Shown here in pieces: positions 15,825 through 64,000 of a stretch of DNA of 64,000 nt; positions within the stretch are counted from its first letter, which is position 1; every line of letters starts with the position of its first letter. The stretch lies in assembly GCA_965261485.1 (NCBI GenBank), contig CBDHCY010000005.1, forward strand, positions 1,484,901 to 1,548,900. The letters are read 5' to 3'. The translations under genes were made by a program, and so were the position numbers. The notes under the pieces were generated by a model. The model made no database searches. It saw only the letters and a program-made list of their open reading frames with translations, and was not told the origin of the DNA. The stretch is from Leptospiria bacterium (GTDB lineage: Bacteria; Spirochaetota; Leptospiria; Turneriellales; CBDBES01).

Positions 15825-15873
15825 ATAAAATACTTGCTTTGGGGTAATTGTTGTCGCTACCTCTACCCAACAA

Positions 15874-21181: not shown

Positions 21182-21365
21182 GAGTCCTGTAGGCGTGGCA
21201 CTGAGGTAACGAAGGTCACAAATCTTACTGTTGGTCGTAATTCAAGCAAGGTGGCTCGAATATAAAAAAACCTTACTGATAGAGATCTTCTACAAAACTT
21301 GTAATTTTAAAAAATATAAGTGGTGTCTTAACAAAATACAAATTTTGAATTAATAAATATTCTGT

Positions 21366-44442: not shown

Positions 44443-44922
44443 ATGTTTGGTCTGCTTATGGATAAAATTATTATTTCATCTTTTGAAGAATTTAAACAAT
44501 ATGAAGGCAAAGAGATCGGGGTTTCTGATTATATAACGATTGATCAAGATAGAATCAATAAATTTGCTGATGCGACATCAGATCATCAGTGGATTCATGT
44601 TGATCAAGAGAAAGCTAAAAAAGAATCTCCATTTGGGGTTACAATTGCACATGGTTATCTGACAATGTGTATGGCACCATATTTTTTATACGAGATGTTT
44701 GATTTTCCGGGCATAAAGTTACTGGTCAACTACGGTCTTGATAAAATGAAACTTATGCAGCCAGTGAAAGTAAATAGTAAAATTCGCCTTCGAGCAGAAC
44801 TTTTAAGCCTCAAGAACCTAAGAGGAACCATTAAATCAACAATGAAGCTTACCTTTGAGATTAAAGGGATTGATAAACCGGCATGTCAAGCCGAGGTTAC
44901 TTACTTATATCAATTTTCATAA
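44443..44922 (+). CDS. MaoC-like (R)-specific enoyl-CoA hydratase / dehydratase
   Basis: Hot-dog hydratase motif FADATSDHQWIHVDQEKA. Confidence 0.8.
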   Translation: MFGLLMDKIIISSFEEFKQYEGKEIGVSDYITIDQDRINKFADATSDHQWIHVDQEKAKKESPFGVTIAHGYLTMCMAPYFLYEMFDFPGIKLLVNYGLDKMKLMQPVKVNSKIRLRAELLSLKNLRGTIKSTMKLTFEIKGIDKPACQAEVTYLYQFS

Positions 44923-47139: not shown

Positions 47140-49860
47140 TTATTCAAGTGCTCTCTGAATAATATCTTGTTGTTCTCTACTATGAATTTTAGCGAGACCA
47201 GCCGCAGGACTGGCTGAAGTTGGGCGGGAGATGCATTTAATATTAATATTTTTCTGTAAAAGCTCTTTTAGTTGAGTTTCTAAGAATAGCCAAGCCCCCA
47301 TATTAGCTGGCTCTTCTTGGAGCCAATAACACTCCTTGAGGTTTGAATATAATTTCAGGAGTTCTTTAATTTTATTCTCCGGAAAAGGATACAATTGTTC
47401 AACACGTACTAAAATAATATTAGTAATTTTTTTATCTTTGAGCATTTTATAAATTTCATAATAAATTTTTCCGCTCATGAGAATTAATCTCGTTACTTGT
47501 TTAGGAGTTTTACTTGAATCAATAATTATTTTTTCAAAACGACCATGAGTAATTTCTTTCATGCTCGATGAGGCCTCTGGGAGCCTTAATAAACTTTTTG
47601 GGCTCATTATGATCAAAGGTTTTTTAGATTTTCTTAAAATTTGTCTTCGTAGTAGGTGAAATATTTGAGCTGGAGTTGTAGGGTAACACACTTGCAAATT
47701 TTGTTCAGCACACATATGTAAAAAACGTTCTAAACGAGCACTTGAATGTTCGGGACCTTGCCCCTCATAACCATGGGGAAGTAACATGGTAAGACCACTC
47801 ATACGTAGCCATTTAACCTCAGAGCTACTCAAAAATTGATCAATAATAACTTGGGCACCATTTGCAAAGTCACCAAATTGTGCTTCCCATACGACTAGAG
47901 CATCAGGATCTGCAAGAGAATAGCCATATTCAAAACCCAAAACAGAGAACTCAGAGAGTGGAGAATTAACAATCTCTAATTTACTTTGATTCTCTGAAAT
48001 ATGATTAAGAGGAAACCATTTTTCTTCTGTTTCTCTGTCAACAAAACCAGCATGTCGGTGAGAAAAAGTACCACGAATACTATCTTGACCAACAAAACGT
48101 ATTTTATGTTGACTGTCTAAAATAGAACCCATCGCAAGAGCTTCGGCAAAACCCCAGTCAATTTCTATTTCTCCTTCATACATTTTTTTTCGATTTTCAA
48201 TCAATTTAATTAACTTCGGATGAATATTAAAAGAATCAGGTATCGAAAAAAGTGCATTCGCTACTTTCTTGAGTTGTTTTTTTAAAAGATTAGTATCAGG
48301 CTCTCCGGTCTCTTCTCTCGAATAAGAGGACCAACGATCTTTAAGGGTTTCAGCGACCATGTGTGTACGACCTTCTTTAACCTGTTTAAATGAATCGTCT
48401 AAGGTTTTTGTGGCATTAATTTTTATTTTTTCGATCTCTTCTTTTTTAATCTCAAGGTTTTGAATAATTTTTTCTTCATAGAGATCAACCACTGGTTTAT
48501 GTTTTCTAATTTTTTTATACATAGAAGGTTGTGTGAAGGCGGGTTCATCTGTTTCGTTATGACCTAGCTTGCGATAACAAACTAGGTCAAGTATTACATC
48601 TTTTTTAAATTTCTTTCGATAACTCATAGCAAGTTGTACAACACGAAAAACAGATTCTGGATCATCACCATTTACGTGAAAAATAGGAATTTGAAAACCT
48701 TTTGCTAAATCAGTCGCATAAAGAGTCGAGCGTGATTCCATGGGTAGGGTGGTAAAACCAATTTGATTATTAAATACAACGTGTAAAACACCTCCTGTGC
48801 TAAAGCTTTCTAAGTTCACAAGATTAAGACTCTCAGCAACAATACCTTGCCCAGCAAAAGCGGCATCACCATGAATTAAAAGAGCCATAAACTTATCTCG
48901 TTGATGATCTTTAGCCATTGTTTGACGGGCACGAACAGAACCCATCACAACCGGATTTACAGCCTCAAGATGACTCGGATTAAAAGCCAAAGAAAGTTTA
49001 ATTTTTTTTCCTGAACGTGTTATAACATGATTTGAATAGCCTAGATGATATTTAACATCCGCATAATCGAGAGTTTGAGGATCATAGTTTTCTTCAAACT
49101 CAGCAAAAATTTGACTAGCTGGTTTTTGTAAAGAGTTCACTAAAACATTTAATCGCCCTCGATGAGCCATACCCATTACAATACATTCTAAACCATCATC
49201 TGCCCCCTTCTCAATTATAGAGCTTAGTAAAGGAATAAATGATTCACCACCTTCAAGGGAAAAACGTTTTTTACCAATATATTTTTTAGCGAGAAAGTGC
49301 TCAAAAAAATCAGCATGCACGAGATTATCATAAAGTTCTAATTTAATATTTTTTGATAAATCTTGATTATGTTCAAAAGACTCAATTTGTGTTTGGAGCC
49401 ATAATCGTTCTTTTTCATTTACGATATAGTGATGCTCATAACCAATATTTCCACAGTAAATTTTTTCAAACCATGGTATAATATCTTTTAATTGTTTAGC
49501 TTTGAATCTAGAATCAAGAATAGAGAATTCAAGTAATAATTCTTTCTCTCCAATTAAGGCAAGTTTTTCTTCAATGATCTCTCTGGTAGGTTCATGAATA
49601 TTTAGCGGGTCTAGAGAAGCAGCGAGATGCCCATGGGCTCGATATGTGTTCAGAAGATTTTCGATGCCCATTGTCTTAAGTGTCATCGTATTTTGTAGCC
49701 TATCAATACGAGGCGGAAGGTTTGAATTATTATCAATAGTGGTAAAAAAATCAAGCCAAGCTTGATCTAATGCACTAGGGTTTGTTTCATATGTTTTATG
49801 AAGGTCTTCTAATATAGCAAGATTAGCACCACTTAAAGCAGAGTAAGTCAGTTGGTTCAT
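47140..49860 (-). CDS. sucA: 2-oxoglutarate dehydrogenase E1 component
   Basis: 906 aa with RGHL..A.LDPL, GHNETDEPAFTQP and LPHGYEGQGPEHSSARLERFL. Confidence 0.95.
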   Translation of the reverse strand: MNQLTYSALSGANLAILEDLHKTYETNPSALDQAWLDFFTTIDNNSNLPPRIDRLQNTMTLKTMGIENLLNTYRAHGHLAASLDPLNIHEPTREIIEEKLALIGEKELLLEFSILDSRFKAKQLKDIIPWFEKIYCGNIGYEHHYIVNEKERLWLQTQIESFEHNQDLSKNIKLELYDNLVHADFFEHFLAKKYIGKKRFSLEGGESFIPLLSSIIEKGADDGLECIVMGMAHRGRLNVLVNSLQKPASQIFAEFEENYDPQTLDYADVKYHLGYSNHVITRSGKKIKLSLAFNPSHLEAVNPVVMGSVRARQTMAKDHQRDKFMALLIHGDAAFAGQGIVAESLNLVNLESFSTGGVLHVVFNNQIGFTTLPMESRSTLYATDLAKGFQIPIFHVNGDDPESVFRVVQLAMSYRKKFKKDVILDLVCYRKLGHNETDEPAFTQPSMYKKIRKHKPVVDLYEEKIIQNLEIKKEEIEKIKINATKTLDDSFKQVKEGRTHMVAETLKDRWSSYSREETGEPDTNLLKKQLKKVANALFSIPDSFNIHPKLIKLIENRKKMYEGEIEIDWGFAEALAMGSILDSQHKIRFVGQDSIRGTFSHRHAGFVDRETEEKWFPLNHISENQSKLEIVNSPLSEFSVLGFEYGYSLADPDALVVWEAQFGDFANGAQVIIDQFLSSSEVKWLRMSGLTMLLPHGYEGQGPEHSSARLERFLHMCAEQNLQVCYPTTPAQIFHLLRRQILRKSKKPLIIMSPKSLLRLPEASSSMKEITHGRFEKIIIDSSKTPKQVTRLILMSGKIYYEIYKMLKDKKITNIILVRVEQLYPFPENKIKELLKLYSNLKECYWLQEEPANMGAWLFLETQLKELLQKNINIKCISRPTSASPAAGLAKIHSREQQDIIQRALE

Positions 49861-49982
49861 TTTTATTATCTTAATCTCTAAAAAATTATGGTAAGAATCT
49901 ATAAACTCTCTTTGACAAGTCTATTTTTTATTTTTTTATGAAAATAAATTTTTGAGTGAACCTTAAACTCTTAAGGAGCTCT

Positions 49983-50192
49983 CAAATGGAGGTTCAGCCT
50001 ACCTTTTTATTGTTATAGCGGTGGCATTGCCTGAAACTCATAAACACCCATCAAATTCAAATTGAAAGTTGAAAATGGAAAATTGAGGTTCAGCCTACTT
50101 TTTATTGTTATAGCGGCGGCATTGGCTGAGCTTCATAAGCACCCATCAAATTGAAAGTTGAAAATGGAAAATTGAAGGTTCAGATTACTTTT
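49983..50192 (-). repeat. 3'-tail cassette array A4 (2 units) downstream of P4
   Basis: Units at about 50012 (TATAGCGGTGGCATTGCCTGAAACTCATAAACACCC) and about 50108 (TATAGCGGCGGCATTGGCTGAGCTTCATAAGCACCC). Confidence 0.85.
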
Positions 50193-52122
50193 TTATTGAC
50201 TTTCGTAAGCACCCATATCTATGCTACTGCCTACAATACGAGCCTTGCCTGCTAGGTCGGTGGCACCTGCTGGGAATAAAGGCATCCCAGGAGGCCCATT
50301 ACTACCCGCATCAATCGCAGGTGAAGTCGCCATTAAACGTAAATCGTCATCAAACAGAGGGTCAGCGTCAATATTATTACCACCATCGCCATTATTGCCA
50401 GTGCTATCATCACCGTCATTATCGTCGCCACAACTACTAGTGCCCATTGCCCAAGTGGAACCACTAGCACCACAACCTTGAATCAAGCTGTGTGAAATAT
50501 TAATTATCCTATTATTAGTAGACGATCTGTTACTGCAAATATTCTGATTACCTCGGAAACTCCCTCCAGTACAAGTGCCCGCTGTATTGCCCCACATAAT
50601 GACATTAGTCAAGGTGACGGTATTTTCATTTTGAAAAAAAGCAGCTCCCCCAGCATCAGTAGCCGTATTATTTGAAAAGACAACATTATTTAAAGTGAAA
50701 TTAACAGCCGCCCTATCACTCTGCAGACCGCCACCATTAACATCAGACGTATTATCTGAAAAGACAACATTCTCTAAAATTCCATCATACCCCTCATTAT
50801 ACAGACCGCCGCCGCCCAGCCTAAAGCCGTTTGGGTCAACGCTTGCATTGCCTGAAAAAAAAACATTACTTAAATTAATAGTACTACCAACACTAGAAGA
50901 TAGTAATAGACCACCGCCACCATTAGCCGTATTACCGAAGAAAATAATATTACTCAAAGTTACATTATCATTATTTACATTACGCATACCGCCACCAAAA
51001 GCATTCCTTGGCACATTAATATCAGAACCATTTGATTGACCAGCTGTAATCGTAAAGCCCTCTAAAGTTGTATTAGACGCCCCTATAACAACCGTATAAC
51101 TATTACTACCCACAATGTGACTAGCATTTTCTATAATGCCATCATCATTAGAATCAGTATCGTCACCACCAATGTCACCGCTGAGAATAGTTTTATTCAC
51201 CCGCCAGTTACGCTGACTCAATGAATGCTCTGTACCCACGAAACCACCATAGACCTTGACCTTTGATACCAATTGAAAAGTAGCATTTCTATCAGAAGTT
51301 GTAGACGTAGGCTTATAAACACCTTTAGCCACCACAATCTTATTAGTGGCTACAGAAGATGTTAACGCTGAGTTTAGAGAGCTATAAGCATTCGACCAAC
51401 TCGTGCCATCACCCGTACCACTAGCAGCAGCATTCACAAAAATAATTTTACCTGATCGTCTTGTTGCTTCAATCTCAACACCCGCAGCGTAATTATGGCT
51501 TGCATCATAAGCAAAAATTTTATAATAGTAAGAAGTGCCTACCGTTGCGGTACTAACGCCGAAATCAGAAGAATTTGCACTCTGCACCACCTCTGAGCTA
51601 TCAATATCATCACCAACCGTATATTCTGTACCAGCACTAGGGGCGTCTACTATTGAGACTGTGTTTCTTAAGATTAAAACACCAGAGAAATCAGCATCCG
51701 CTGGGTTCATCCAAGTGATTACATTTAATAAGTCTCCAAAAGCAACGCCACTCACCACAGCTGGTGGCTCTGTATCTGTTGGATCAGGAATCGTTGGCAT
51801 ATTCGGATTTGTTCCGCCGGGATTCTTTCCACCGGGATTTGTTGGGTCAGGATTTTTCCCACTGGGCTCTATTGGCACAGCCGGACCTTTAGCATCGTCA
51901 GAGCAAGAGACGTTAAAGGCAAAAAAAATAAGGATTAATAATAAACCTTGAGTAACCTTGAGTAACCTTGAGTAACCTTGAGTAACCTTGAGTAACCTTG
52001 AGTAACCTTGAGTAACCTTGAGTAACCTTGAGTAACCTTGAGTAACCTTGAGTAACCTTGAGTAACCTTGAGTAACCTTGAGTAACCTTTTGAGTTGATT
52101 TAAGTGCTTTTAATAGTTTCAT
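50193..52122 (-). CDS. P4: phase-variable beta-helix surface lipoprotein paralog, currently OFF
   Basis: Body ORF 50193-51878 (561 aa, ends IDMGAYESQ*) plus leader ORF 51913-52122 (MKLLKALKSTQKVTQGYSRLLKV...FIINPYFFCL*). Confidence 0.8.
51946..52089 (-). repeat. decamer tract, 14 perfect copies of CCTTGAGTAA
   Basis: Counted directly: units run from 51946 to 52085, followed by CCTTTTGAG. Confidence 0.95.
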
Positions 52123-52126
52123 GTCT

Positions 52127-52155
52127 TCTTATCGTACACTAAAACAGTCTGTCAA
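52127..52155 (-). promoter_or_regulatory. candidate promoter of P4 (TTGACA-17-ATAAGA)
   Basis: Minus strand reads TTGACAgactgttttagtgtacgATAAGAagacATG. The -10 is at 52132-52127 and the -35 at 52155-52150. Confidence 0.35.
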
Positions 52156-52212
52156 TAAAAAAATGTTTTTTTGATAATTTCTGAATACTTTGAAATTTAA
52201 AGACATCTAATT

Positions 52213-52422
52213 AAATTCAAATGGAGGTTCAGCCTACTTTTTTATTGTTATAGTGGCGGCATTGGCAGAGCTTCATAAAGCATCCACCAAATTCAAATCG
52301 AAAGTGGAAAATTGAGAGTTCAGCCTACTTTTTTATTGTTATAGCGGTGGCATTGGCTGAGCTTCATAAGCACCCATCAAATTCAAATTGAAAATTGAAA
52401 ATGGAAGGTTCAGATTACTTTT
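52213..52422 (-). repeat. 3'-tail cassette array A5 (2 units) downstream of P5
   Basis: Units at about 52248 and about 52342 (TATAGTGGCGGCATTGGCAGAGCTTCATAAAGCATCC and TATAGCGGTGGCATTGGCTGAGCTTCATAAGCACCC). Confidence 0.85.
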
Positions 52423-54315
52423 TTATTGACTTTCGTAAGCACCCATATCTATGCTATTGCCTACAATACGAGCCTTGCCTGCTAGGTCTAGGGCACCAGT
52501 TGCGAATAAAGGCATTCCAGTAGGCCCATTACTACCCGCATCAATCGCGGGTGAACCCGCCTTTAAACGTAAACCATCATCGGCCGTACCAAAAATATTA
52601 TCAGCACCATTGGGGTCATCAGCGTCTGCAAACAGAGGGTTATTACTATCAATATTATTACCAGTATTACCAGAAGCACAACTATTAGCATGCGTTGATG
52701 CCCACCAATTGGTATCCGTGCTACAACCTTGAATCAGGCTGTGTGAAATAGTAACTGCAACAAGCATACCGCCGCTACAAAAATTAGCATTACCTTTGGC
52801 ACTGTTTCCAGTACAAGCCATCGCCGTATTGCCCCACATAATGACATTAGTCAAAGTAAGATCAGCAGAAGCATTTGACAGACCGCCACCAGTAGTACCA
52901 GACTCATTGCCTGAGAAAATAACATTACTCAAAGTTAAACGAGGACTAGCATTACGCATACCGCCACCAAAAACAGCAGACTTATTGTCTGAGAAAATAA
53001 TATTACTCAAAGTTAAACTGAAATCAGAACTAGACAAACCGCCGCCACCAAAAGAGCTAACACGCTGATTACTGGCTGTATTGCCCGAGAAAATAATATT
53101 ACTCAAAATTAAATTCCTACCAACATTGTACATACCGCCGCCAGAATCGGCTGTATTGCCTGAGAAAATAATATTACTCAAAATTAAATTATCACTAGAA
53201 CTATGCATACCGCCCCCCAGAATAACGACACCAATACCCCTACTGGCATTTGATTGACCAGCTGTAATCGTAAAGCCCTCTAAAGTTGTATCACCCGCCC
53301 CTGTAACAACCGTATAACTATTACTACCATTAATATCGCTAGTAGCTGTGGTGCTACCAGAACTAACTCGATTGGTCGTTTCTGTAACGCCATCAGCATT
53401 AACCGTGTCATTATTATCAATGTCACCGCTGAGAATAGTTTTATTCATCCGCCAGTTACGCTCACTTAATAAAGTATCTGCGACATCAAAACCACCATAG
53501 ACCTTGACCCCTGATATCAATTGAAAAGTAGCACTTCTATCAGAAACTGAAGGTGGAGACACTAAAGGCATCGCAAGTGTAGTAGGCTTATAAACACCTT
53601 TAGCCACCACAATTTTATCACCAGTGGTGGCGACGACTCCTTCAGCAGGAGGTTTTAACACCGACCGTAGATCGCTATAAGCATTCGACCAACTCGTGCC
53701 ATCACCCGTACCACTAGCAGCAGCATTCACAAAAATAGTCTTATCAGAACTTTTTGTTGCTTCGATCTCAACACCCGCGGCGTAATTATGGCTTGCATCA
53801 TATGCGAAGATTTTATAATAGTAAGAAGTGCCCATCGTTGCGGCACTAACGCCGAAATCAGAAGAATTTGCACTCTGCACCACCTCTGAGCTACCAATAT
53901 CACCACCAACCGTATATTCTTTACCAACACTAGGAGCGTCGTCTGTTATTGAGACTGTATTTCTTAAGATTAAAACCCCAGAGAAATCAGCATCTGTCGG
54001 GTTTGCCCAAACAATCACGTTTAAGTCTCCAAAAGTAGCACCACTCACCACAGCTGGTGGCTCTGTATCTGTTGGATCAGGAATCGTTGGCATATTCGGA
54101 TTTGTTCCGCCGGGATTCTTTCCACCGGGATCTGTTGGGTCAGGGTTCTTTCCGCCGGGCTGTGTTGGCACAGCCGGATCTTTAGCATCGTCAGAGCAAG
54201 AGACGTTAAAGGCAAAAAAAATAAGGATTAATAATAAACCTTGAGTAACCTTGAGTAACCTTGAGTAACCTTGAGTAACCTTTTGAGTTGATTTAAGTGC
54301 TTTTAATAGTTTCAT
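52423..54315 (-). CDS. P5: beta-helix surface lipoprotein paralog, intact and in frame (ON)
   Basis: Single 630-aa ORF: MKLLKALKSTQKVTQGYSRLLKVTQG-LLLILIFFAFNVSC|SDDAKDPAVPTQPGGKNPDP..., followed by the Fn3-like block, FSGN/GGG repeats and a C-terminal ...IDMGAYESQ*. The decamer tract has 4 units. Confidence 0.88.
   Translation of the reverse strand: MKLLKALKSTQKVTQGYSRLLKVTQGLLLILIFFAFNVSCSDDAKDPAVPTQPGGKNPDPTDPGGKNPGGTNPNMPTIPDPTDTEPPAVVSGATFGDLNVIVWANPTDADFSGVLILRNTVSITDDAPSVGKEYTVGGDIGSSEVVQSANSSDFGVSAATMGTSYYYKIFAYDASHNYAAGVEIEATKSSDKTIFVNAAASGTGDGTSWSNAYSDLRSVLKPPAEGVVATTGDKIVVAKGVYKPTTLAMPLVSPPSVSDRSATFQLISGVKVYGGFDVADTLLSERNWRMNKTILSGDIDNNDTVNADGVTETTNRVSSGSTTATSDINGSNSYTVVTGAGDTTLEGFTITAGQSNASRGIGVVILGGGMHSSSDNLILSNIIFSGNTADSGGGMYNVGRNLILSNIIFSGNTASNQRVSSFGGGGLSSSDFSLTLSNIIFSDNKSAVFGGGMRNASPRLTLSNVIFSGNESGTTGGGLSNASADLTLTNVIMWGNTAMACTGNSAKGNANFCSGGMLVAVTISHSLIQGCSTDTNWWASTHANSCASGNTGNNIDSNNPLFADADDPNGADNIFGTADDGLRLKAGSPAIDAGSNGPTGMPLFATGALDLAGKARIVGNSIDMGAYESQ
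54239..54282 (-). repeat. decamer tract, 4 perfect copies of CCTTGAGTAA
   Basis: Counted directly: units run from 54239 to 54278, followed by CCTTTTGAG. Confidence 0.95.
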
Positions 54316-54319
54316 GTCT

Positions 54320-54348
54320 TCTTATCGTACACTAAAACAGTCTGTCAA
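54320..54348 (-). promoter_or_regulatory. candidate promoter of P5 (TTGACA-17-ATAAGA)
   Basis: Same sequence as the P4 promoter. The -10 is at 54325-54320 and the -35 at 54348-54343. Confidence 0.35.
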
Positions 54349-54404
54349 TAAAAAAATGTTTTTTTGATAATTTCTGAATACTTTGAAATTTAAAGACATC
54401 TAAT

Positions 54405-54547
54405 TAAATTCAAATGGAGGTTCAGCCTACTTTTTATTGTGATAGTGGCGGCACATTGGCTGAGCTTCATAAAGCATCCACCAAATTCAAATTGAAAGTT
54501 CAAAATGGAAAATTGAAAGTTGAGAGTTCAGAGTTCAGATTACTTTT
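54405..54547 (-). repeat. 3'-tail cassette array A6 (1 unit) downstream of P6
   Basis: One unit at about 54441 (GATAGTGGCGGCACATTGGCTGAGCTTCATAAAGCATCC), followed by hexamer-rich spacer. Confidence 0.8.
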
Positions 54548-56656
54548 TTATTGACTTTCGTAAGCACCCATATCTATGCTACTGCCTACAATACGAGGGT
54601 TGCCGGCTAGGTCTAGGGCACCAGTTACGAATAAAACTTTCGTATTATCACTAGGATCAACATTACTACCCGCATCAATCGCGGGTGAACCCGCCCTTAA
54701 ACGTAAATCGTCATCAAACAGAGGGTCAGCGTCAATGTTATTACCACCATCAGTGCCGCATCTACTGAGATTAGTTGCTGAGCTCCAAATGGAAGAACCA
54801 CTAACACCACAATCTTGAATCAAGCTATGTGAAATAGTAGGCTGTACATTGAAGGTGCAAAAATTAACATTACCCTTAAAATTGTCTCCAGTACAAGCAG
54901 CCCCTGTATTGCCCCACATAATGACATTGGTCAAGATAGCAACAGCACTTCCAGTATTTTTGCGAATTTGACTTCCTCCACCTACATTAGTAGCTGTATT
55001 GTTTGAAAAAACAACATTAGTCAAGGTTAAATTAGCATCAACACTTTGTATACCGCCACCAAAACTGGCCATATTGCCTGAAAAAGCAACATTGGTTAAA
55101 ATAGCACCACCACCACGAATAGTAAGACCACCTCCACCCAAAATAGTAGCTGTATTGTTTGAAAAAACAATATTAGTTAAGGTTAAATTATCACTACCCT
55201 TAGCATAAAAACCGCCACCAACATTGGCTGCATTGCCTGAAAAAGTAATATTAGTTAAAGTTAAATTATGATTATCTATATTATACACGCCACCACCCCT
55301 ATTAATATAATTACCGGTACCTGCAGGAGCATTTGATTGACCAGCTGTAATCGTAAAACCGTCTAGAATGGCATCGCTCGCCCCTGTAACAACTGTATAA
55401 CTATTATTAGCGATTACAGTCATCATACCACCAGCATCCACCATTTCGGTACCCTTAATGTCATCAGCATTTTCTATAATGCCATCACGATTAGAATCAG
55501 TATCGTCACCACCAATGTCACCGCTGAGAATAGTTTTATTCACCCGCCAGTTACGCTCACTTAACGAGGCATCTGCGACATCAAAACCACCATAGACCTT
55601 GACATTTGATATCAATTGAAAGGTAGCATTTCTCCCAAGAGTTGAAAGTGTAGACCTAGGCTTATAAATACCTTTAGCCACCACAATCTGAACTGGTAGA
55701 GTCTCAGTCGCATCATCAGCTATTTTAGATTCTAACGCTGAGTTTAGGGAGCTGTAAGCATTCGACCAACTCGTGCCATCACCCGTGCCACTCGCAGCAA
55801 CATTCACAAAAATAATTTTATCAGAGATTTTCGTTGCAGAGATCTCAAAACCTGTGGCATAGTTACGGTTTGTATCATAAGTGAAGATTTTATAATAATA
55901 CTTTTTATAACGGTAAGGAATATTTTCTCCATCCTGTTCCCTTATATCTGTGAGGTCAAAGTCAAGAGATTTTGCATCGTGCACCACCTCTGAGGCACCA
56001 ATTGAAACACCAACCGTATATTCTTTACCAGCACTAGGGGCGTCTACTATTGAGCTTGTATTTCTTAAAATTAAAACTTTAGAGAAATCAGCATCTGTTG
56101 GGTTTAACCAAGTGATTTTGTTCGTGAAATCACTAAAAGTAACATCGCTCACCTCAGCTGGTGGCACTGTATCTGTCGGATTGGTTTTTGTCGAACCAGG
56201 TGTTTTGTAGTCAGCCAGTGCTGGTATATATTTATTAACCTTAGTCTGAACACCGTTGTTGTAGTAGAGATAAGTGTCACAGACAAAGATTTTATAAAAA
56301 TAAACGACATCCTCTACAACTTCTGTGTCTCTAAAAGTTGGTGCGGCTGCGTTATAGGCTACCCGTGAGGCTCCCATTGCGGTGAAGACAGGATAATCTC
56401 GCCAAGGTCTAGGAAAACCTTGGATAGCACTTGTATTCTTTAAGATTAGAACCTTATTGTAGATGTTACGGCCTCTACTCGCAGGATTCTTCCATGCTAG
56501 GGTTATCCCGCTTGAATTACGATTAACGGTAAGATCTGTGACTTCTGGTAGAGGGTCATCCAACCCATTCAAAAAATATGCACGACCAATTTTAGTGCAA
56601 TGCAGGAAAATCAGTAGGAAAAAAAAACTTATAAAAAATAGAAATCTTGAGTTCAT
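54548..56656 (-). CDS. P6: beta-helix surface protein paralog, long form with a duplicated Fn3-like domain and no decamer switch
   Basis: 702-aa intact ORF. It has a different signal peptide (MNSRFLFFISFFFLLIFLHC), two Fn3-like modules (…VYFYKIFVCDTYLYY and …YYYKIFTYDTNRNY), TLTN[IV]xFSxNxA..GGG repeats, and ends IDMGAYESQ*. Confidence 0.85.
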   Translation of the reverse strand: MNSRFLFFISFFFLLIFLHCTKIGRAYFLNGLDDPLPEVTDLTVNRNSSGITLAWKNPASRGRNIYNKVLILKNTSAIQGFPRPWRDYPVFTAMGASRVAYNAAAPTFRDTEVVEDVVYFYKIFVCDTYLYYNNGVQTKVNKYIPALADYKTPGSTKTNPTDTVPPAEVSDVTFSDFTNKITWLNPTDADFSKVLILRNTSSIVDAPSAGKEYTVGVSIGASEVVHDAKSLDFDLTDIREQDGENIPYRYKKYYYKIFTYDTNRNYATGFEISATKISDKIIFVNVAASGTGDGTSWSNAYSSLNSALESKIADDATETLPVQIVVAKGIYKPRSTLSTLGRNATFQLISNVKVYGGFDVADASLSERNWRVNKTILSGDIGGDDTDSNRDGIIENADDIKGTEMVDAGGMMTVIANNSYTVVTGASDAILDGFTITAGQSNAPAGTGNYINRGGGVYNIDNHNLTLTNITFSGNAANVGGGFYAKGSDNLTLTNIVFSNNTATILGGGGLTIRGGGAILTNVAFSGNMASFGGGIQSVDANLTLTNVVFSNNTATNVGGGSQIRKNTGSAVAILTNVIMWGNTGAACTGDNFKGNVNFCTFNVQPTISHSLIQDCGVSGSSIWSSATNLSRCGTDGGNNIDADPLFDDDLRLRAGSPAIDAGSNVDPSDNTKVLFVTGALDLAGNPRIVGSSIDMGAYESQ

Positions 56657-56846
56657 TTAAAGTTTTTAATAGACTTATACTCTCTATAAGCACAATCATC
56701 GTAGACTAAAATAGCCGGTCAAGAAAAAATATTTTTTTGATAATTTATGAATACCTTGGAATTTAAAGACATCTAATTAAAATAGTAATACCATTACTGG
56801 TTTATATAATAAAAAAATTATCTAAATCTACAGTTTGGTGGTATTA

Positions 56847-58979
56847 TTAATTCTCTAAGTGAAAGACTAATTGCATATTATCCCAATCAGATTTAATGTA
56901 TTGAACGTTGAGATCTTCACCAAACATGACCGTTTTACTATACTTTGTTAAAACAACCTGATATTCACTAGGACAAATCATCTTTGATCTGCCGTTAAAA
57001 CTACCCACGGGGATAAATCCTTCGATAAAAGGCGTATTTAACATAATAAATAAACCAGCTTGATTAAAACCAGTGAAACGAGCGATAAAAGACCTGCCTA
57101 TTTTATTTTTTAATAGATTGATCGATAATAATTTAAACATATCACGCTCTGCCTCCAAAGCTAATCGCTCTTTTTTAGATGCATGAAGCGAAATTTCTTT
57201 TAATTCACTCTCTTTATAAGAGAACTTTCTATTTTTTTGCCAAGTTAAAATTTGTCTGTGTAATACGAGATCAGAATATCTGCGGATGGGAGAAGTAAAA
57301 TGTGCATAATCTAAGAACCCTAAACCCCAGTGTCCTCTAGGCTTAGACTCGTAATTAGCCTGCATAAAAGAACGTAAAAGAGCATAAGAGAATATTTCTT
57401 TAAACTTTTGAGTTGTGAATGAATGCATTGCATCATTTAACGCACTATAATTTATATCTTTTAATTGAAAGCGGTTACCCAAAAGTTTGAGTAATTGATT
57501 AAGGCTAGATAACTTCGCTTTATCCATAGATTCATGCACTCTATAAATTGAAGAGATCTTACTAAATCGACATAATCTTGCAGCAGCAATATTAGCTATT
57601 AACATAAATTCTTCGATAAGCTGATGTGATTTCAATTGTTCCTTTTGTTCCACGGTAATAGGCTTATCTTGGCGATCAAAAACCATTTCAGAATCAGAAA
57701 TATTAAGGTTAATTCCGCCTTTTTTTAAACGAGCCGATCTTAATCTTTGGGCAAAATCCCAAAATATTTTAAGAGGTTTACTCTTACGCTTAATCTCTTT
57801 TTCCGCCTCGGAGTAAGTAAATCGCTGATCTATATAAACAATAGACCTATAGAAGGTTGAATTAATTACTTGAAGATTGCTATTGAAATTTATCTCACAA
57901 GTTAAAGTGAGACGTTTTGTTTTTGGTTTAAGGCTACAATATTCTTCTGAAAGTATATTAGGGAGCATAGGGAGTACAAAGGGTTTAAGATAATAAGAAT
58001 TACTTCGTTCAAAAGCCATAGTATCAAGCTCAGAACCCTTTTCTAAAAAATAAGAAACATCAGCAATGTGAACATATACTCGCGTATGACTCCCCTCTTT
58101 TTCTATAGAAATAGCATCGTCAAAGTCTTTAGCATCATCACCATCAATCGTACAAGTATAAAGTTTTTTTAGGTCTCTTCTCTCTTTATCTTTTAGCCCT
58201 GATTGAAATCGCTGACGGAGAGTTTTTTTAGTGGGGATTCCATTCTTTGAATAATTTAATTGGAGAGCATACTTTAAAGCGATTCTTCGCAAAGCAAGGC
58301 TGCTATGTTTAGAAGATAATTTTTCAACTAAAGAACAAGTGTGAATTTTTTGAATACGTGGACCAAAATCCATAGGTATAGGTGTAGAAACCATGTCATG
58401 TTCGACATATACTTCAAGATAATCTCCCTCTGTAAGCTTTACTTTTGGATTTATTTTTAAAGCTGAAAATGGTTGATCAGGCATATCGATCAAAGTTATA
58501 AGATAAAACTTTGCTGTTTTTTTAAAAACCTTACCTATAAAATTATTTGTAAAACTTTTAATAATTTTAACTACTTCACCTTCATAGCGATTTCTACTCT
58601 TATTTGTAATCTTGACCATGATTTGATCTCGTGCCTTCGCTCCGCCTCTTTTAAAATTTGAAATAAAAATATCAGAAATCCCATTGCTTAAACCAAAACC
58701 GGAGCCCGACCTAGAAACAGCCAGACTCGTTTGAACAAGAAAAGGTTTTTTAATTAAAAACTTTTTGGATCTTTTATCTACTAATTTAAAACTCATCAAC
58801 TCAGACATTAATATATTCAGATTGAAATCTTGAGATGAAGAATGTCTACTAAATTTAACTCTTTTTTTTCTTCTAAAAGAATATTCTTTTTCTAAACTTT
58901 GTTTGATCTCATGATAAGTTAGCTCCTCCCCTTGATGATTAGCCAGATAGTCTAAAACAAACTTATAACTCAAACTCAC
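56847..58979 (-). CDS. rnr: ribonuclease R
   Basis: RNB domain signature HFTSPIRRYSDLVLHR, an N-terminal winged-helix/CSD-like region and a C-terminal S1-like region. Length 710 aa. Confidence 0.9.
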   Translation of the reverse strand: MSLSYKFVLDYLANHQGEELTYHEIKQSLEKEYSFRRKKRVKFSRHSSSQDFNLNILMSELMSFKLVDKRSKKFLIKKPFLVQTSLAVSRSGSGFGLSNGISDIFISNFKRGGAKARDQIMVKITNKSRNRYEGEVVKIIKSFTNNFIGKVFKKTAKFYLITLIDMPDQPFSALKINPKVKLTEGDYLEVYVEHDMVSTPIPMDFGPRIQKIHTCSLVEKLSSKHSSLALRRIALKYALQLNYSKNGIPTKKTLRQRFQSGLKDKERRDLKKLYTCTIDGDDAKDFDDAISIEKEGSHTRVYVHIADVSYFLEKGSELDTMAFERSNSYYLKPFVLPMLPNILSEEYCSLKPKTKRLTLTCEINFNSNLQVINSTFYRSIVYIDQRFTYSEAEKEIKRKSKPLKIFWDFAQRLRSARLKKGGINLNISDSEMVFDRQDKPITVEQKEQLKSHQLIEEFMLIANIAAARLCRFSKISSIYRVHESMDKAKLSSLNQLLKLLGNRFQLKDINYSALNDAMHSFTTQKFKEIFSYALLRSFMQANYESKPRGHWGLGFLDYAHFTSPIRRYSDLVLHRQILTWQKNRKFSYKESELKEISLHASKKERLALEAERDMFKLLSINLLKNKIGRSFIARFTGFNQAGLFIMLNTPFIEGFIPVGSFNGRSKMICPSEYQVVLTKYSKTVMFGEDLNVQYIKSDWDNMQLVFHLEN

Positions 58980-58991
58980 AAAATCTAACCT

Positions 58992-61721
58992 TTAGGGATT
59001 ACTTTTCTTCAAAAGAAACTCTACTCTCCTGTTTCTACTGCGTTTATACCAATTTTTATTTGGTACAAGCGGAGAAACTTCACCAATCCCTTGATAGTCT
59101 AGACGCTCAGGCTCTGTGCCCAATTGAATTAAATAATCAACCACTGCCTTTGCTCTCTTCTCAGAAAGCAAAAGGTTAAAACTTTCTCCTCCGAGATCAT
59201 CAGTATGACCTTCCACTTTTATATTATAATGACTATATCGTTCTAACAGACGATGAATCTTTTTAATCAAAGCTCTAGTTTTATATTTTAACTTGGCTTT
59301 TCCTAAGTCAAACTCTATATTTGATATCCTTATTTTTAACCCTCTTTCGCTAACTAGAACCAAAATATCAGTATCAAATTGACCTTCCTTTGACTTCGCC
59401 TGATTACCATAACTATCGGTGGCTGTCAGATAGTATCTATACTCAGTAGCAGACTCTACGAGGCTCCCCTTATCAGATTTACCACTCCAATAAATTTCTT
59501 TAGGGTACTTAGCACCCCCTTTAAATTTTTTAAACAGAACTGTATGAGTTTTACCTTTATCATTTGAACTCACTTCTTTAATATAAAGTTGATAGCTCGT
59601 TATAGGGGAATAATCTTGAATAGATAAGCTAAAAACTTCTTCTTCGTCTTTACCATCACCATCAGGAGAGAAAATAGAAAGACTTGCCTTGACATTAACT
59701 TTTGGTTTTTGAGTATCAAGAATAATTTTTTTGAAGAGTGAATGTGGATGATTACCTGACGCATATTTTACAGAAAATTGAGCATAATAAATACCATCTT
59801 TTAAAGATTTACCATCTTTTTTTGTTCCATTCCATTTAATGGATGGAGGAATTTTACCCCCCCCCCATTTGACGAGAGCGTTTTTTGCATTTTTTATAGG
59901 CTCATCATAAACATCCTTACCTATGGTAAGCTTCCAGCTTATAATATTTTTTTGATTTGAGACCACGGGAGTCATCATCAATGTATCAAATTTTTTGTCA
60001 TGATTAGGGCTTAACCCTGTATTAGAAAGTTTCACATCAACAACATCAATACTTCTGATTAAAGAGATTGCCTGTGTTTCAGTTTGAGATTGGTTTCCCG
60101 ATAAATCATTAGCCGTAATTTTGTATGTATATAAACCTTCACTTACAGGCTTCCCTTTATCATCTTTTCCATCCCAAATTATTTTTTGAGGTATCGCTTT
60201 ACCATTCCATTTATAAGTTTTTACCACCTCGCCAGTAGAGTTAACAAAACTAGCTCTCCATCTATCATTTTTTGTAGCATTAAACTCTTGTAAAATGGTA
60301 ATTGTTTCTAAAATACCGTCACCATTTGGGCTAAAGAAAGAAGAAAGAGCACTAATTTTAATATCAGGTGATGTTGTATCAATTTCAAAAACTCCTGTGG
60401 AGGGTCTACTTACATTACCCCATTCGTCTGTAGCAACAAACTTATAAGAGTAAATACCATCTGACAAATTTTTATGAGCAATAGAATCAGCTTTCTCTAA
60501 TGCAATGGGGTCGACTGTTCCATCCCACCGAATTTGAGAAGGAACCGATAAATATTCTTGTTTTTTGAAGAAATAAATAAAAAAATCTTTGAAACCAAAC
60601 TCTTTTTCAAAGTCTCGTGTATCACTAGCGAATTTACGCACCACCCGACGCCTGCTGTTTAGTATAGAAAAATTCCAATCTTTTACTAAACTTGCATCTT
60701 CAACAAATATTTTAAAATTAATATAATCTTTTTCTCCATCCCAATTTGGAGAGAAATAATTTAAATCTTGCTTAATATGAACACGAGGTGGGGTCTTGTC
60801 AGCGTAGTCAATATCAAACCTTAGAAAAACAGTATGTAAATCACTATCAATATTTATACCAGTTTGAGCGAAAGCATAATTTAGAGAGACAGAAAGCTGC
60901 TTAACATTTAAGTTGACTCCTACTCCAAGTGTGAGACCATTAAGCAAGTCAGCCTCCTCACTCAGAGCGTAACCTATCCCAAAATTTAAAAATTTATACT
61001 GAAGAGTTAGCCCAAAACGAGCAGGTAAAGACGCATAAGTGCCAATGCCAATAATCTCTCCATTTACACCTACTCTAAAACCATAGTTTTTGTAAAAGAA
61101 AAATTGAGTTCCCAAATGAAGTGAGACGCGTGGACCTACTCCATTGGGATTAAAAATATTCACACCTAAATTATGAGATAGAAAATAAAAACTTAAATCA
61201 TAGAGCCCTAAACCAATTTTTGTACTAAACTCGCTCTTTGTATTATATAAAAATGCAGGCTCAATGGCTAACGAAAAAAAAGATACTGTATTTTCAACAG
61301 TAGCTAAGGCAGGTTTTAAATAGATCCCGAATGAAAATCGACTAGTAAATTGTCTGGCATAACCTACCGATAAAAAATAATATTCTTGAAATTGATTTGA
61401 CGGAATCTCTTTTGTTTTATCACCTAAAAAGCCACCATTGATACTCACGGTACCTACCGGACTAGGGATAAATGCTTGAGCCCAAAAAGCATCAACGAGC
61501 GCAACTTTTGCATACCCAAACCCACCACCTTGAATAGCAAGGCCTCCCATTAATGCAGCGTTTGAAATGCTTGATTCATTTGGAAGTAGCATATTTGTAG
61601 AACTTCCCCCCGAACCTAAGTTCGCCGGAATATGCGTTGACTCTAACAAACCACGGATCGAGCCAAAAGAAATTTCACTAAAAAGTAATAGTAATAAAAA
61701 AAATCGAAACTTGATCATCAT
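58992..61721 (-). CDS. OmpA-family outer membrane protein with an N-terminal beta-barrel-like region and multiple FlgD-Ig-like repeats
   Basis: Signal peptide; Gly/aromatic-rich barrel-like N-terminal 300 aa; four FSPN[GW]DG(x)D/E modules; C-terminal OmpA domain (VEGHTDDLGGESFNLLLSEKRAKAVVDYL...NRRVEF). Confidence 0.8.
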   Translation of the reverse strand: MMIKFRFFLLLLLFSEISFGSIRGLLESTHIPANLGSGGSSTNMLLPNESSISNAALMGGLAIQGGGFGYAKVALVDAFWAQAFIPSPVGTVSINGGFLGDKTKEIPSNQFQEYYFLSVGYARQFTSRFSFGIYLKPALATVENTVSFFSLAIEPAFLYNTKSEFSTKIGLGLYDLSFYFLSHNLGVNIFNPNGVGPRVSLHLGTQFFFYKNYGFRVGVNGEIIGIGTYASLPARFGLTLQYKFLNFGIGYALSEEADLLNGLTLGVGVNLNVKQLSVSLNYAFAQTGINIDSDLHTVFLRFDIDYADKTPPRVHIKQDLNYFSPNWDGEKDYINFKIFVEDASLVKDWNFSILNSRRRVVRKFASDTRDFEKEFGFKDFFIYFFKKQEYLSVPSQIRWDGTVDPIALEKADSIAHKNLSDGIYSYKFVATDEWGNVSRPSTGVFEIDTTSPDIKISALSSFFSPNGDGILETITILQEFNATKNDRWRASFVNSTGEVVKTYKWNGKAIPQKIIWDGKDDKGKPVSEGLYTYKITANDLSGNQSQTETQAISLIRSIDVVDVKLSNTGLSPNHDKKFDTLMMTPVVSNQKNIISWKLTIGKDVYDEPIKNAKNALVKWGGGKIPPSIKWNGTKKDGKSLKDGIYYAQFSVKYASGNHPHSLFKKIILDTQKPKVNVKASLSIFSPDGDGKDEEEVFSLSIQDYSPITSYQLYIKEVSSNDKGKTHTVLFKKFKGGAKYPKEIYWSGKSDKGSLVESATEYRYYLTATDSYGNQAKSKEGQFDTDILVLVSERGLKIRISNIEFDLGKAKLKYKTRALIKKIHRLLERYSHYNIKVEGHTDDLGGESFNLLLSEKRAKAVVDYLIQLGTEPERLDYQGIGEVSPLVPNKNWYKRSRNRRVEFLLKKSNP

Positions 61722-61877
61722 TCTTTTTTACCAGTGTATTTTTTAGCGAAAAAGTGCTCAAAAGAATAAAGCCAAGCTTGATCTGATGCACCAGGGTTTA
61801 TTTCATATTTTTTAGGAATATCTGCTAATATAGAAAGATTAGCACCACTTAAAGTAAGGTAGGTCAATTGATTCATT
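61718..61877 (-). pseudogene. decayed, internally deleted 5' fragment of sucA (duplicate of 49284-49860)
   Basis: Minus-strand translation is MNQLTYLTLSGANLSILADIPKKYEINPGASDQAWLYSFEHFFAKKYTGKKE*, compared with SucA MNQLTYSALSGANLAILEDLHKTYETNPSALDQAWLDFF...FFEHFLAKKYIGKKRF. The adjacent 61878-61990 matches the sucA upstream region 49861-49975. Confidence 0.85.
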
Positions 61878-61993
61878 AAAAAATTACGGTAAAATCCTAA
61901 TTATAGTAGAAATCTATAAACTCTCTTGACAAGTCTATTTTTTATTTTTTTATAAAAATAAACTTTTGAGTGAATCTCAAATTTTTTAATTAA

Positions 61994-62084
61994 ACTATTT
62001 TTTATTGTTATAGTGGCGACATTGGCTGAAACTCATAAACACCCATTAAATTGAAAGTTGAAAATTGAAAGTTCAGACTATTTT
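61994..62084 (-). repeat. 3'-tail cassette array A7 (1 unit) downstream of P7
   Basis: TATAGTGGCGACATTGGCTGAAACTCATAAACACCC at about 62008, followed by hexamer spacer. Confidence 0.8.
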
Positions 62085-64000
62085 TTATTGGCCTTCATAA
62101 GCACCCATATCTATGCGATCGTTTACAATACGAGGGTTGCCGGCTAGGTCGGTGGTTATCTCAGCGGGTAGCCCACCATTGTCGGCCGTACTACCCACAT
62201 CAATCGCAGGTGAACCCGTATTTAAACGTAAATTGTCATCAAGCGTACCAACAACATTATCAGCACCATCGGCGTCTACAAACATTGGATAATTAGCATA
62301 ACCAGCAGCTGTCGGGTCACCATCAATATTATTACCACCATCGCCATTATTGCCAGTGCTATCATCACCATCATTATCGTCGCCACAACTGCTAACACCC
62401 GTTGCCCAAGTGGAACCACTAACACCACAACCTTGAATCAAGCTGTGTGAAATATTAATTGTCCTGGTATCACCAGACAATTTGCTACTGCAAATATTCT
62501 GATTACCTCGGGAATTCGCTCCAGTACAAGTGCCCGCTGTATTGCCCCACATAATGACATTGATCAAGATAATACTTCCAGCTCCATAAATACTACTTCC
62601 TCCACCTCCATCAGCAGTAGCTGTATTGTTTGAAAAAACAACATTAGTCAAGGTTAAATTAGCATGAGTACTCCGTGTACCGCCACCAAAAGGGGCCATA
62701 TTGCCTGAAAAAGCAACATTGGTTAAAATAGCACTACTACGAAAATTAGTAAGACCACCACCACCTAGATTGGAAGCAGTGTTCCCAAAAAAAAGAATAT
62801 TAGTTAATATTAAATTATTACTATTTCTACTATACACACCGCCGCCACCACCGGCTGCATTGCCTGAAAAAGTAATATTAGTTAAGGTTAAATTATGATT
62901 ATCTATATTATACACGCCACCACCCCTATTAGTATGGTTAAAGGTACCAGTAGGACCATTTGATTGACCAGCTGTAATCGTAAAACCATCTAAAATGGCA
63001 TCACTCGCCCCTGTAACAACTGTATAACTATTATTAGCGATTACAGTCATCATACCACCAGCATCCGCCATTTCGGTACCCTTAATGTCATCAGCATTTT
63101 CTGTAACGCCGGCAGCATTAACAGTGTCGTCACCACCAAGATCACCGCTTAAAATGGGTTTGTTCACCCGCCAGTTACGCTCACTTAATGAGGTCTCTGT
63201 ACCACTAAAACCACCATAGACCCTGACATGTGATATCAATTGAAAAGTAGCATCTCGATCAGAAACTAAAGACGTAGGCTTGTAAACACCTGCAGCCACC
63301 ACAATTTGAACTGGTAGAGCCGAGGTCGCGGCAGTGGCTGTAGAAGATGTTAACGCTGAGCTTAAATCGCTAAAAGCATTCGACCAACTCGTGCCATCAC
63401 TCGAACCACTCGCACCACCCGCAGCATTAACAAAAATAGTCTTATTAGTATTTTTCGTTGCAGAGATTTCAACACCCGCGGCATAATTACGGCTTGCATC
63501 ATAAGCGAAGATTTTATAAAAATAAAGAGTGCCCGCCGTTGCCGCTCTAACGCTGAAATCAGGAGAATTGGCATTGTACACCACCCGTGAAGTACCAATT
63601 GAAGCATCAACTATATATTCTTCACCAGCACTAGGGCCATCTATTATTGAGATTGTATCTCTTAAGATTAAAACCTTAGAGAAATCAGCATCCGCTGGGT
63701 TTATCCAAGTAATTACATTTAATAAGTCTCTAAAAGTAACATCGCTCACCTCAGCTGGTGATTGTGTATCAGCTGGTGGTGGTATATATTTATTAACCTT
63801 AGTCTGAACGCCGAAATTGTAATAAAGATAAGTGTCAGAGACAAAGACTTTATAAAAATAAACGACATCCTCTACAACTTCTGTGTCTCTAAAAGTTGGT
63901 GCGGCTGCGTTATAGACTACCCGTGAGACTCCCATTGTGGTGGAGACAGGATAATCTCGCCAATGTTTAGGAAAATCTTGGATAGCACTTGTATTCTTTA
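62085..64000 (-). CDS. P7: beta-helix surface protein paralog (long form like P6); the N-terminus lies beyond the window end
   Basis: ORF track 62085-63935. The frame stays open to 64000: hand translation gives ...KNTSAIQDFPKHWRDYPVSTTMGVS, parallel to P6 KNTSAIQGFPRPWRDYPVFTAMGAS. Ends IDMGAYEGQ*. Confidence 0.85.
   Translation of the reverse strand, partial: KNTSAIQDFPKHWRDYPVSTTMGVSRVVYNAAAPTFRDTEVVEDVVYFYKVFVSDTYLYYNFGVQTKVNKYIPPPADTQSPAEVSDVTFRDLLNVITWINPADADFSKVLILRDTISIIDGPSAGEEYIVDASIGTSRVVYNANSPDFSVRAATAGTLYFYKIFAYDASRNYAAGVEISATKNTNKTIFVNAAGGASGSSDGTSWSNAFSDLSSALTSSTATAATSALPVQIVVAAGVYKPTSLVSDRDATFQLISHVRVYGGFSGTETSLSERNWRVNKPILSGDLGGDDTVNAAGVTENADDIKGTEMADAGGMMTVIANNSYTVVTGASDAILDGFTITAGQSNGPTGTFNHTNRGGGVYNIDNHNLTLTNITFSGNAAGGGGGVYSRNSNNLILTNILFFGNTASNLGGGGLTNFRSSAILTNVAFSGNMAPFGGGTRSTHANLTLTNVVFSNNTATADGGGGSSIYGAGSIILINVIMWGNTAGTCTGANSRGNQNICSSKLSGDTRTINISHSLIQGCGVSGSTWATGVSSCGDDNDGDDSTGNNGDGGNNIDGDPTAAGYANYPMFVDADGADNVVGTLDDNLRLNTGSPAIDVGSTADNGGLPAEITTDLAGNPRIVNDRIDMGAYEGQ

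Follow-up and report, generated by a model that had tools for sequence, protein, structure and literature searches.

The 64,000-nucleotide (nt) window analysed here, taken from contig CBDHCY010000005.1 of a Leptospiria bacterium, carries a decayed copy of the beginning of the sucA gene directly in front of an OmpA-family gene (here ompA) and its partner rnr. A block of DNA was copied from the sucA locus and inserted into the point where the stop codon of a DegT-type aminotransferase gene once overlapped the start of ompA, and on the best explanation the sucA promoter carried in the block now feeds ompA and rnr at least in part. Taken as a whole, this account seems to us probable. The block also brought along a member of a recombining family of surface-protein genes, referred to below as P genes, with its tail cassette. 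All genes under discussion are on the minus strand of the window.

When positions 61724-61990 are compared with the remainder of the window by BLASTN, the sole significant target is the sucA locus, which is hit by two colinear matches: 61750-61981 corresponds to 49735-49967 (81.9% identity over 238 nt, E = 1.1e-60) and 61724-61767 to 49267-49310 (90.9% over 44 nt, E = 2.3e-12). All other matches within the window are AT-rich, 15-28 nt long and have E values of at least 0.013. A previous examination of the letters alone (the sequence-only reading) had described this region as a diverged sucA 5' end with its upstream region and an internal deletion, and the identity found is indeed far beyond what low-complexity matches would give. 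Global alignment with MAFFT misplaced the short distal coding segment, and placement by BLAST and by codons was used instead. Together with the adjoining tail cassette, the duplication spans 61724-62084, matching 49267-50107. The parent gene is intact at 47140-49860, encoding a 906-residue protein with the Pfam domains E1_dh, Transket_pyr, OxoGdeHyase_C and 2-oxogl_dehyd_N, which is 100% identical to P0014 and 55% identical to Leptospira SucA.

The coding part of the copy, the sucA stub, forms an open reading frame (ORF) of 52 codons at 61718-61876, of which 133 of 153 nt (87%) are identical to sucA. Its product reads MNQLTYLTLSGANLSILADIPKKYEINPGASDQAWL|YSF|EHFFAKKYTGKK|E*, and it is made up of sucA codons 1-36 (61769-61876; 93 of 108 nt identical to 49753-49860, with 10 amino-acid changes), one mutated Asp-Phe-Phe repeat, sucA codons 187-198, a Glu codon and TGA. 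The repeat and the segment that follows it occupy 61724-61768 (40 of 44 nt identical to 49267-49310). Missing from the copy are 441 bp of sucA, equal to 147 codons and in frame, that lie between two identical 9-bp repeats, GATTTTTTT, at 49744-49752 (sucA nt 109-117, codons 37-39) and 49303-49311 (nt 550-558, codons 184-186). A single mutated repeat, TATTCTTTT, is left in the stub at 61760-61768, and the loss is a textbook deletion between short direct repeats. The earlier estimate of about 437 bp (49311-49747) was thus close.

At its distal end, the stub runs almost into the start codon of the OmpA-family gene, as the sequence-only reading had also noticed. The junction consists of sucA-derived GGTAAAAAA, a 2-nt filler GA (61722-61723) and ATGATGATC, so that the last sucA-derived base is 2 nt from the ATGATG with which the gene begins. 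The real sucA goes on with CGTTTT at this point, and related species have TC or CTC ahead of the ATG or GTG. The Glu codon at the end of the stub, GAA, is formed by the filler and the A of the ompA ATG, and the TGA that follows overlaps that ATG (GAATGATGATC), creating an ATGA overlap.

Upstream of the stub ORF, the copied sucA upstream region extends over 61877-61989 (donor 49861-49975) and is followed by a single tail cassette at 61995-62084, a pseudo-3' end of a P gene that was copied with the block; 61999-62084 is 91% identical to the sucA-proximal cassette. The arrangement is that of the real sucA locus, where about 2.3 copies of the cassette (49976-50192) separate the sucA upstream region from P4 (50193-52122), the paralogue adjoining sucA and the donor-type neighbour, which follows 14 copies of a 10-nt repeat and is here out of frame. 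The P gene next to the stub is P7 (62085-64000), a mosaic that runs off the end of the window. Both proteins belong to the choice-of-anchor-Q family by their C-termini (NF041518; 39.0 bits for P7 and 39.4 bits for P4, with a curated cut-off of 25). Searching the literature for “choice-of-anchor Q” yielded nothing.

That the 3' third of P7 most resembles P4 had been taken as a further sign of a sucA-linked origin, and this part of the argument held only in part because the P genes are mosaics. A sliding identity profile shows P4-like sequence only at 62351-62650 (89%). The beginning and middle of the gene are P6-like (95% at 64000-63851 and 80-96% at 63175-62650), and its final ~180 nt match the allele of another strain, L085, at 97% identity. 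Since its divergence is similar to that of the sucA pieces, the 62351-62650 segment is plausibly original. P7 is nevertheless weak evidence for the origin of the block, which is marked robustly by the sucA stub, the promoter and the cassette instead.

Two further strains of the species, L081 and L085, are represented by independent contigs that differ from the window by ~1-3%. The OmpA-family protein has one relative at 99% identity and three at 61-65% in public assemblies (orthologues P0001-P0004). L081 and L085 have the order DegT, P gene, 52-residue ORF, OmpA-family, RNB, P gene, sucA (L081 is 98.7% identical to the window over 5.3 kb), and the whole stub structure is found again in both L081 and L085. 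In principle, repeats such as the P genes and tail cassettes could mislead an assembler into joining sucA-adjacent reads to the ompA locus, and the L081 contig does end in the 5' region of sucA. However, a mis-join of the same DNA could show neither the 13-18% divergence of the copy from the real sucA locus nor its separate deletion, and since the same structure recurs in the two other independent contigs, one of which (L085) holds the stub and the full sucA together, we reject a chimeric contig as having next to no probability.

The state before the insertion is preserved in three related species, L082, L083 and L084, those with OmpA-family proteins 61-65% identical to that of the window. Their gene order is HPPK/panB, DegT-type aminotransferase, OmpA-family, RNB, with spacers of 27-32 bp and 9-18 bp, and 4 bp (ATGA or GTGA) are common to the end of DegT and the beginning of the OmpA-family gene. 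Neither a P gene nor a piece of sucA is present between DegT and ompA in any of the three. The proposal that a block had been copied to a second site is thereby supported, together with the pre-duplication state that such a synteny comparison was expected to reveal. Because the site is empty in the relatives and occupied in the strains, the block was inserted after the split from these species and before the strains diverged. The sucA locus of the relatives keeps ApbE/FMN_bind downstream, whereas the upstream gene differs from genome to genome (SelR, SLT or an eIF-1a-like gene) and is never a P gene. With other genes in that place in the relatives, the adjacency of P gene, tail and sucA is specific to this lineage.

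The left junction can be read in L081 as ...GTAGAATAAATTTCATG|CTATCACCGTACA|CTAAGTATTTTTTTATTGA..., where the ancestral end of DegT, ...GAA(T)AAATTTCATG (also ...ATTTCATG), is kept up to and including the old ATG (compare ...GAAAATATTTCATGATG in L084) and is followed by sequence from upstream of a P gene. DegT itself now ends at a premature TAA three codons ahead of the ancestral stop. Between the DegT end and the P-upstream sequence lies a 13-nt filler, CTATCACCGTACA, which resembles the reverse complement of GTGTACGATAG, found ~40 nt downstream in the P promoter region, and which could be the signature of a template switch. The conserved P-gene upstream region begins after the filler, ~60 nt ahead of the P start codon. 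Both junctions map to a single target point, with at most 3 bp (ATG) shared or duplicated.

These observations establish the following course of events. In an ancestor of the species, a block of about 2.9 kb (as measured in the donor) was copied, reaching from ~60 nt upstream of a P gene through the gene, its tail cassette or cassettes and the sucA promoter to about codon 198 of sucA. The copy entered, in the same orientation, the 4-bp overlap between the DegT stop and the ompA start, within what was then a tightly packed HPPK/panB-DegT-ompA-rnr cluster. Slippage or recombination between the 9-bp repeats removed the internal segment of the copied sucA, which went on to drift as a pseudogene, and the P gene of the block was overwritten repeatedly by gene conversion from its paralogues. 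The block most likely arrived in one step, copied and inserted by illegitimate or template-switch recombination, and this is the simplest route because it explains both junctions at once. Movement by an insertion sequence or transposon was considered and rejected: the block contains only the P gene and the 52-residue ORF, with no transposase ORF or transposase domain, its ends are a P promoter region and the middle of the sucA coding sequence, and the only possible target repeat is the 3-bp ATG, with no dedicated search for inverted repeats having been made at the block ends.

The same sucA'|ompA junction could also have been made by a tandem duplication of a segment comprising ompA, rnr, a P gene, its tail and the 5' end of sucA, if the first copy of ompA-rnr was subsequently deleted. 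Two units of P gene, tail and sucA 5' end do flank ompA-rnr as direct repeats, an rnr-P-sucA adjacency is present in this species, and promoter capture at the junctions of tandem duplications is well attested (PMC6614815, PMC11111574). Against this, a second deletion is needed whose left breakpoint falls within ~3 nt of the coordinate of the first junction, the ompA ATG, and an intermediate with two copies of ompA-rnr is not seen in the three strains. We consider the tandem route quite unlikely and retain the single insertion.

What has become of the stub as a coding sequence is fairly clear. It differs from sucA at 20 of 153 nt, 15 of the differences nonsynonymous and 5 synonymous (ratio of nonsynonymous to synonymous rates, dN/dS, 0.73), and all five differences among the three strains within the ORF are nonsynonymous. 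The acidic residue (Glu or Asp) at position 18, part of an LLE(E/D) motif and common to all 13 aligned orthologues, is lost. Residues 1-52 of the real SucA score 33.5 bits against PF16078 (cut-off 27), whereas the stub product has no Pfam match even at E<=10; with the catalytic E1_dh and Transket_pyr domains absent as well, it lacks what identifies a SucA protein. A search with the 52-residue sequence found only its own three-member cluster, confined to this species. The stub descends from sucA and, to judge from these patterns, is dead as a piece of SucA and under no amino-acid constraint. The ORF has nevertheless stayed intact in all three strains and is called as a gene in L081 and L085; since it also begins at the start codon of sucA, with 26 of its first 36 residues unchanged, one might imagine that it encodes a small protein with a function of its own, the SucA N-terminus as a free peptide binding the E2/E3 components and modulating 2-oxoglutarate dehydrogenase. 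The substitution pattern, both against sucA and between strains, and the loss of the acidic residue and of the PF16078 signal speak against such a peptide, and we reject it as very improbable.

The copied upstream region is better preserved in its distal portion than near the start codon. The core (61913-61985), which contains AAAAATAAAAAATAGACTTGTCAA, is 92% identical to the 73 nt at 49899-49971, while the 36 nt of ATG-proximal leader (61877-61912) are scrambled, with 58% identity and indels. About 75 nt upstream of the sucA ATG, the motif AAAAATAAAAAATA(nn)CTTGTCAA is common to the window and to two relatives, L086 and L087, and some 20 nt downstream of it lies an A/T-rich hexamer, CAATAA or CATAAT. 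The sequence AAAAATAAAAAATAnnCTTGTCAA stands at this distance in L086 and L087 despite their differing upstream genes, and is intact in the copy. The retention in the block of a sucA upstream motif conserved in different species makes it plausible that ompA/rnr have captured a promoter. The geometry fits: the motif (61913-61985) and the ompA ATG (61721) have the same orientation, with no terminator-like site in between. The element CTTGTCAA cannot be called a general promoter element because it is not enriched in the window. A further copy is found at 44419-44426, ~20 nt upstream of the ATG of a plus-strand ORF (44443-44922).

Candidate hexamers in the copy are TTGTCA (61932-61927), TACTAT (61908-61903) and TATAAT (61905-61900). 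A 1-nt deletion and a C-to-T change have created the combination TTGTCA-18 nt-TACTAT, overlapping the perfect TATAAT, and on the minus strand the promoter scan flagged no other sigma-70-like site there; the original, with its 19-nt spacer, was not flagged. No intrinsic terminator is predicted between the copied promoter and ompA, nor after P7. In the intergenic regions between P7 and the stub and between P4 and sucA, RNA folding was no stronger than in shuffled sequences (z = 0.14 and -1.05) and terminators were absent; a comparison of the whole window with Rfam gave no match to a known RNA family.

The insertion would have cut ompA and rnr off from co-transcription and coupling with DegT and set a gene of a phase-variable type ahead of them. 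A separate promoter downstream of the P gene would be useful since the P genes of this family are phase-variable, and the copied sucA promoter, which lies ~150-210 nt upstream of the ompA ATG and faces it, most likely supplies at least part of the ompA/rnr transcription. That this candidate promoter makes some contribution is more likely than not. The remnant ORF, still open and with its ATGA falling on the ompA start, may also bring ribosomes to that start in the way DegT formerly did, and may thus re-create the ancestral coupling. Across the whole window, very few genes have a motif resembling a Shine-Dalgarno (SD) site, and several adjacent genes overlap by 4 bp (ATGA), which suggests SD-independent initiation in this lineage.

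The main rival on function is that the duplication took place as described and left a neutral scar, with the promoter and the mini-ORF idle and the transcripts of ompA/rnr either reading through from P7 or from the operon upstream or starting at an unrecognised promoter. Several findings weigh against an active promoter and leader and fit a scar just as well. Conservation of the promoter core does not significantly exceed that of the dead coding part (86-91%) and may therefore reflect no more than the age of the copy. TTGTCA and TATAAT are 21 nt apart, a non-canonical spacing, and the TACTAT at the 18-nt spacing, the best -10 candidate, reads TACTAC in L085. The leader next to the ATG has been scrambled, as noted. 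Read-through from a P7 promoter or the upstream operon could suffice for ompA/rnr, the more so as nothing resembling a terminator follows P7. An open frame of 51 codons after 20 substitutions is expected by chance with a probability of 0.3-0.6, and even when the in-frame deletion and the match of the TGA to the frame are included (each ~1 in 3), P is only 0.03-0.07. The missing SD site ahead of ompA is uninformative on any need for coupling because this genome rarely uses such sites. The reconstruction itself depends on a left junction beyond the end of the window, which could be read only in the other strains (L081 7604-7640, L085 about 610-650).

Still, an insert of more than 2 kb with a phase-variable-family gene in front of ompA/rnr would be expected to cause polarity unless a promoter follows it; the complete cross-species sucA upstream motif has been retained and faces ompA; and the stub region is 98.7% conserved among the strains, compared with ~73% for the adjoining P7 slot. 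The idle scar is a real possibility, if well short of probable. At the opposite extreme, the stub might have been domesticated as an expression module, with selection maintaining both the sucA promoter and an open ATGA leader, so that ompA/rnr would be under sucA-type control by the tricarboxylic acid (TCA) cycle or carbon status, translationally coupled, and insulated from P-gene switching. This stronger version we think unlikely. The account we prefer is that of a block inserted at the DegT/ompA overlap, with a stub promoter that probably contributes to the expression of the genes behind it.

The recipient gene (58992-61721) encodes a 909-residue, Lsa66-like protein with the Pfam domains OmpA, FlgD_ig, Big_13 and CHU_C, whose closest NCBIfam match is the Leptospira adhesin Lsa66, with a score under the cut-off of that family. 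Twelve base pairs downstream is rnr (56847-58979), an RNB-domain exoribonuclease gene, and the ompA-rnr pair is found in all relatives. When the RNB exoribonuclease was used as query against genome contigs, it retrieved only ~30%-identical proteins from unrelated phyla, the search patterns being too generic, and contributed nothing on synteny; alignment of the OmpA-family orthologues against metagenome contigs gave a single, irrelevant OmpA-domain match. Exact-match look-ups of the OmpA-family protein of the window and of P0013 gave no hit. DUF1577 is present in one relative and, together with the SucA identity and the Lsa66 match, makes the lineage look akin to Leptospira.

The P genes themselves vary in several ways. 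Only one occupies the interval between rnr and sucA in L085, and probably one in L081, where the contig ends in the sucA 5' region, compared with three (P6-P5-P4) in the window. The slot of P7 is only ~73% identical between strains although its flanks are 98.7% identical. In L081 and L085, a different 3' flank replaces the P7 tail cassette, with the switch point at 61989/61990, and a second switch in identity occurs at about 50079 (window 50080-56700 and 61990-64000 compared with L081/L085, with flanks 98.7-98.9% identical).

Tail cassettes are tandem arrays of 82-109-bp units found downstream of every P gene, at 2210-2484, 4576-5560, 7547-8507, 49984-50198, 52219-52428, 54427-54548 and 61995-62090, with up to ~9-10 copies after P2 and P3. 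Each unit consists of the last ~30 nt of the ORF (...MGAYExQ) and its 3' flank, and encodes an alternative ending (MGVYEFQAMPPL*). The cassettes could be landing pads for recombination or remnants of unequal crossing-over.

At the other end of the genes, a 10-nt unit (AACCTTGAGT as read on the plus strand, ACTCAAGGTT in gene sense) is perfectly repeated just past the ATG of P1-P5, within a signal-peptide region that ends in ...FNVSC. The tracts (4266-4441, 7298-7413, 10260-10437, 51944-52089 and 54237-54282) leave P1-P4 out of frame, with 17, 11, 15 and 14 copies, and P5 in frame, with 4. The copy number also differs between strains (L081). The repeats and the signal region suggest a lipoprotein-like family that undergoes phase variation by strand slippage.

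Elsewhere, the window contains a G+C-rich 47-bp tandem repeat, CCCAAGCGAGCAAGGCACCACTCGTAACTGGCGGTCAACCACTCTCG, at 15866-16313 (9.6 copies, 94% match), which sits just downstream of a 1150-residue ORF (16326-19778, minus strand); the window otherwise has 34% G+C. In L086, a Cas12a (Cpf1)-type gene with REC1, RuvC and NUC domains (20899-22721) is located ~8 kb downstream of sucA.

The locus is a natural example of a recombining surface-protein family dragging neighbouring DNA with it, in which the donor, the empty site, both junctions and the secondary deletion are known, and it illustrates how an operon can be broken up and supplied with a substitute promoter in the same event. Should the captured sucA promoter be active, a promoter of central metabolism would drive both a gene for an adhesin-like outer-membrane protein and one for an enzyme of RNA decay. 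If the stub has in fact been domesticated, it would constitute a natural, fixed repair of an operon by a captured promoter and a leader derived from a pseudogene. The more unusual biology nearby is the variation of the P family, with its frame-shifting 10-nt repeats, tail-cassette arrays and gene replacement between strains.

Recombining, phase-variable surface-protein families are familiar from Chlamydia (Pmp), Neisseria (pilE/pilS) and Treponema (tprK). The P genes resemble them in being mosaic, in diverging between strains beside near-identical flanks, in their variable copy number and in their 5' frame-shifting repeats; in terms of sequence kinship to the Pmp, pilE and tprK families, there is one weak Chlam_PMP repeat match in P4. 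The stub has much in common with other gene remnants of bacterial segmental duplications, namely a housekeeping 5' fragment under relaxed constraint, an internal deletion at short repeats and an intact parent. Unlike the usual remnant, it keeps a start codon, an open frame and a promoter, and its end coincides exactly with the start codon of the following gene, so that the ancestral ATGA is reproduced. In this respect, it is comparable to translationally coupled upstream ORFs with ATGA overlaps, with the geometry of DegT/ompA in the relatives and of several gene pairs in the window, except that the upstream ORF is here a decaying pseudogene and the coupling putative.

The rnk-citT module of the long-term evolution experiment with E. 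coli reportedly arose by promoter capture at a duplication junction. Here as in such duplications, a segment with a promoter and a 5' gene stub has come to lie directly upstream of another gene in the same orientation, through junctions without long homology, and a gene fragment is left as a scar. Microhomology-mediated gene activation and promoter capture at duplication junctions have been described in laboratory evolution (PMC6614815, PMC11111574). In contrast to those cases, the present duplication is ancient (~13% diverged) and fixed in a natural species, and its simplest reading is a copy inserted at a dispersed site, ~10 kb off in this strain, and not in tandem; the recipients were not silent genes but part of an operon interrupted by the same insertion, and the promoter is a putative one. 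The rearrangement is clearly resolved and of an ordinary class, involving no new mechanism. What distinguishes it from the known cases is that it is old, fixed and dispersed, that it interrupts and possibly repairs an operon in one step, and that it ends on the start codon of the recipient gene.

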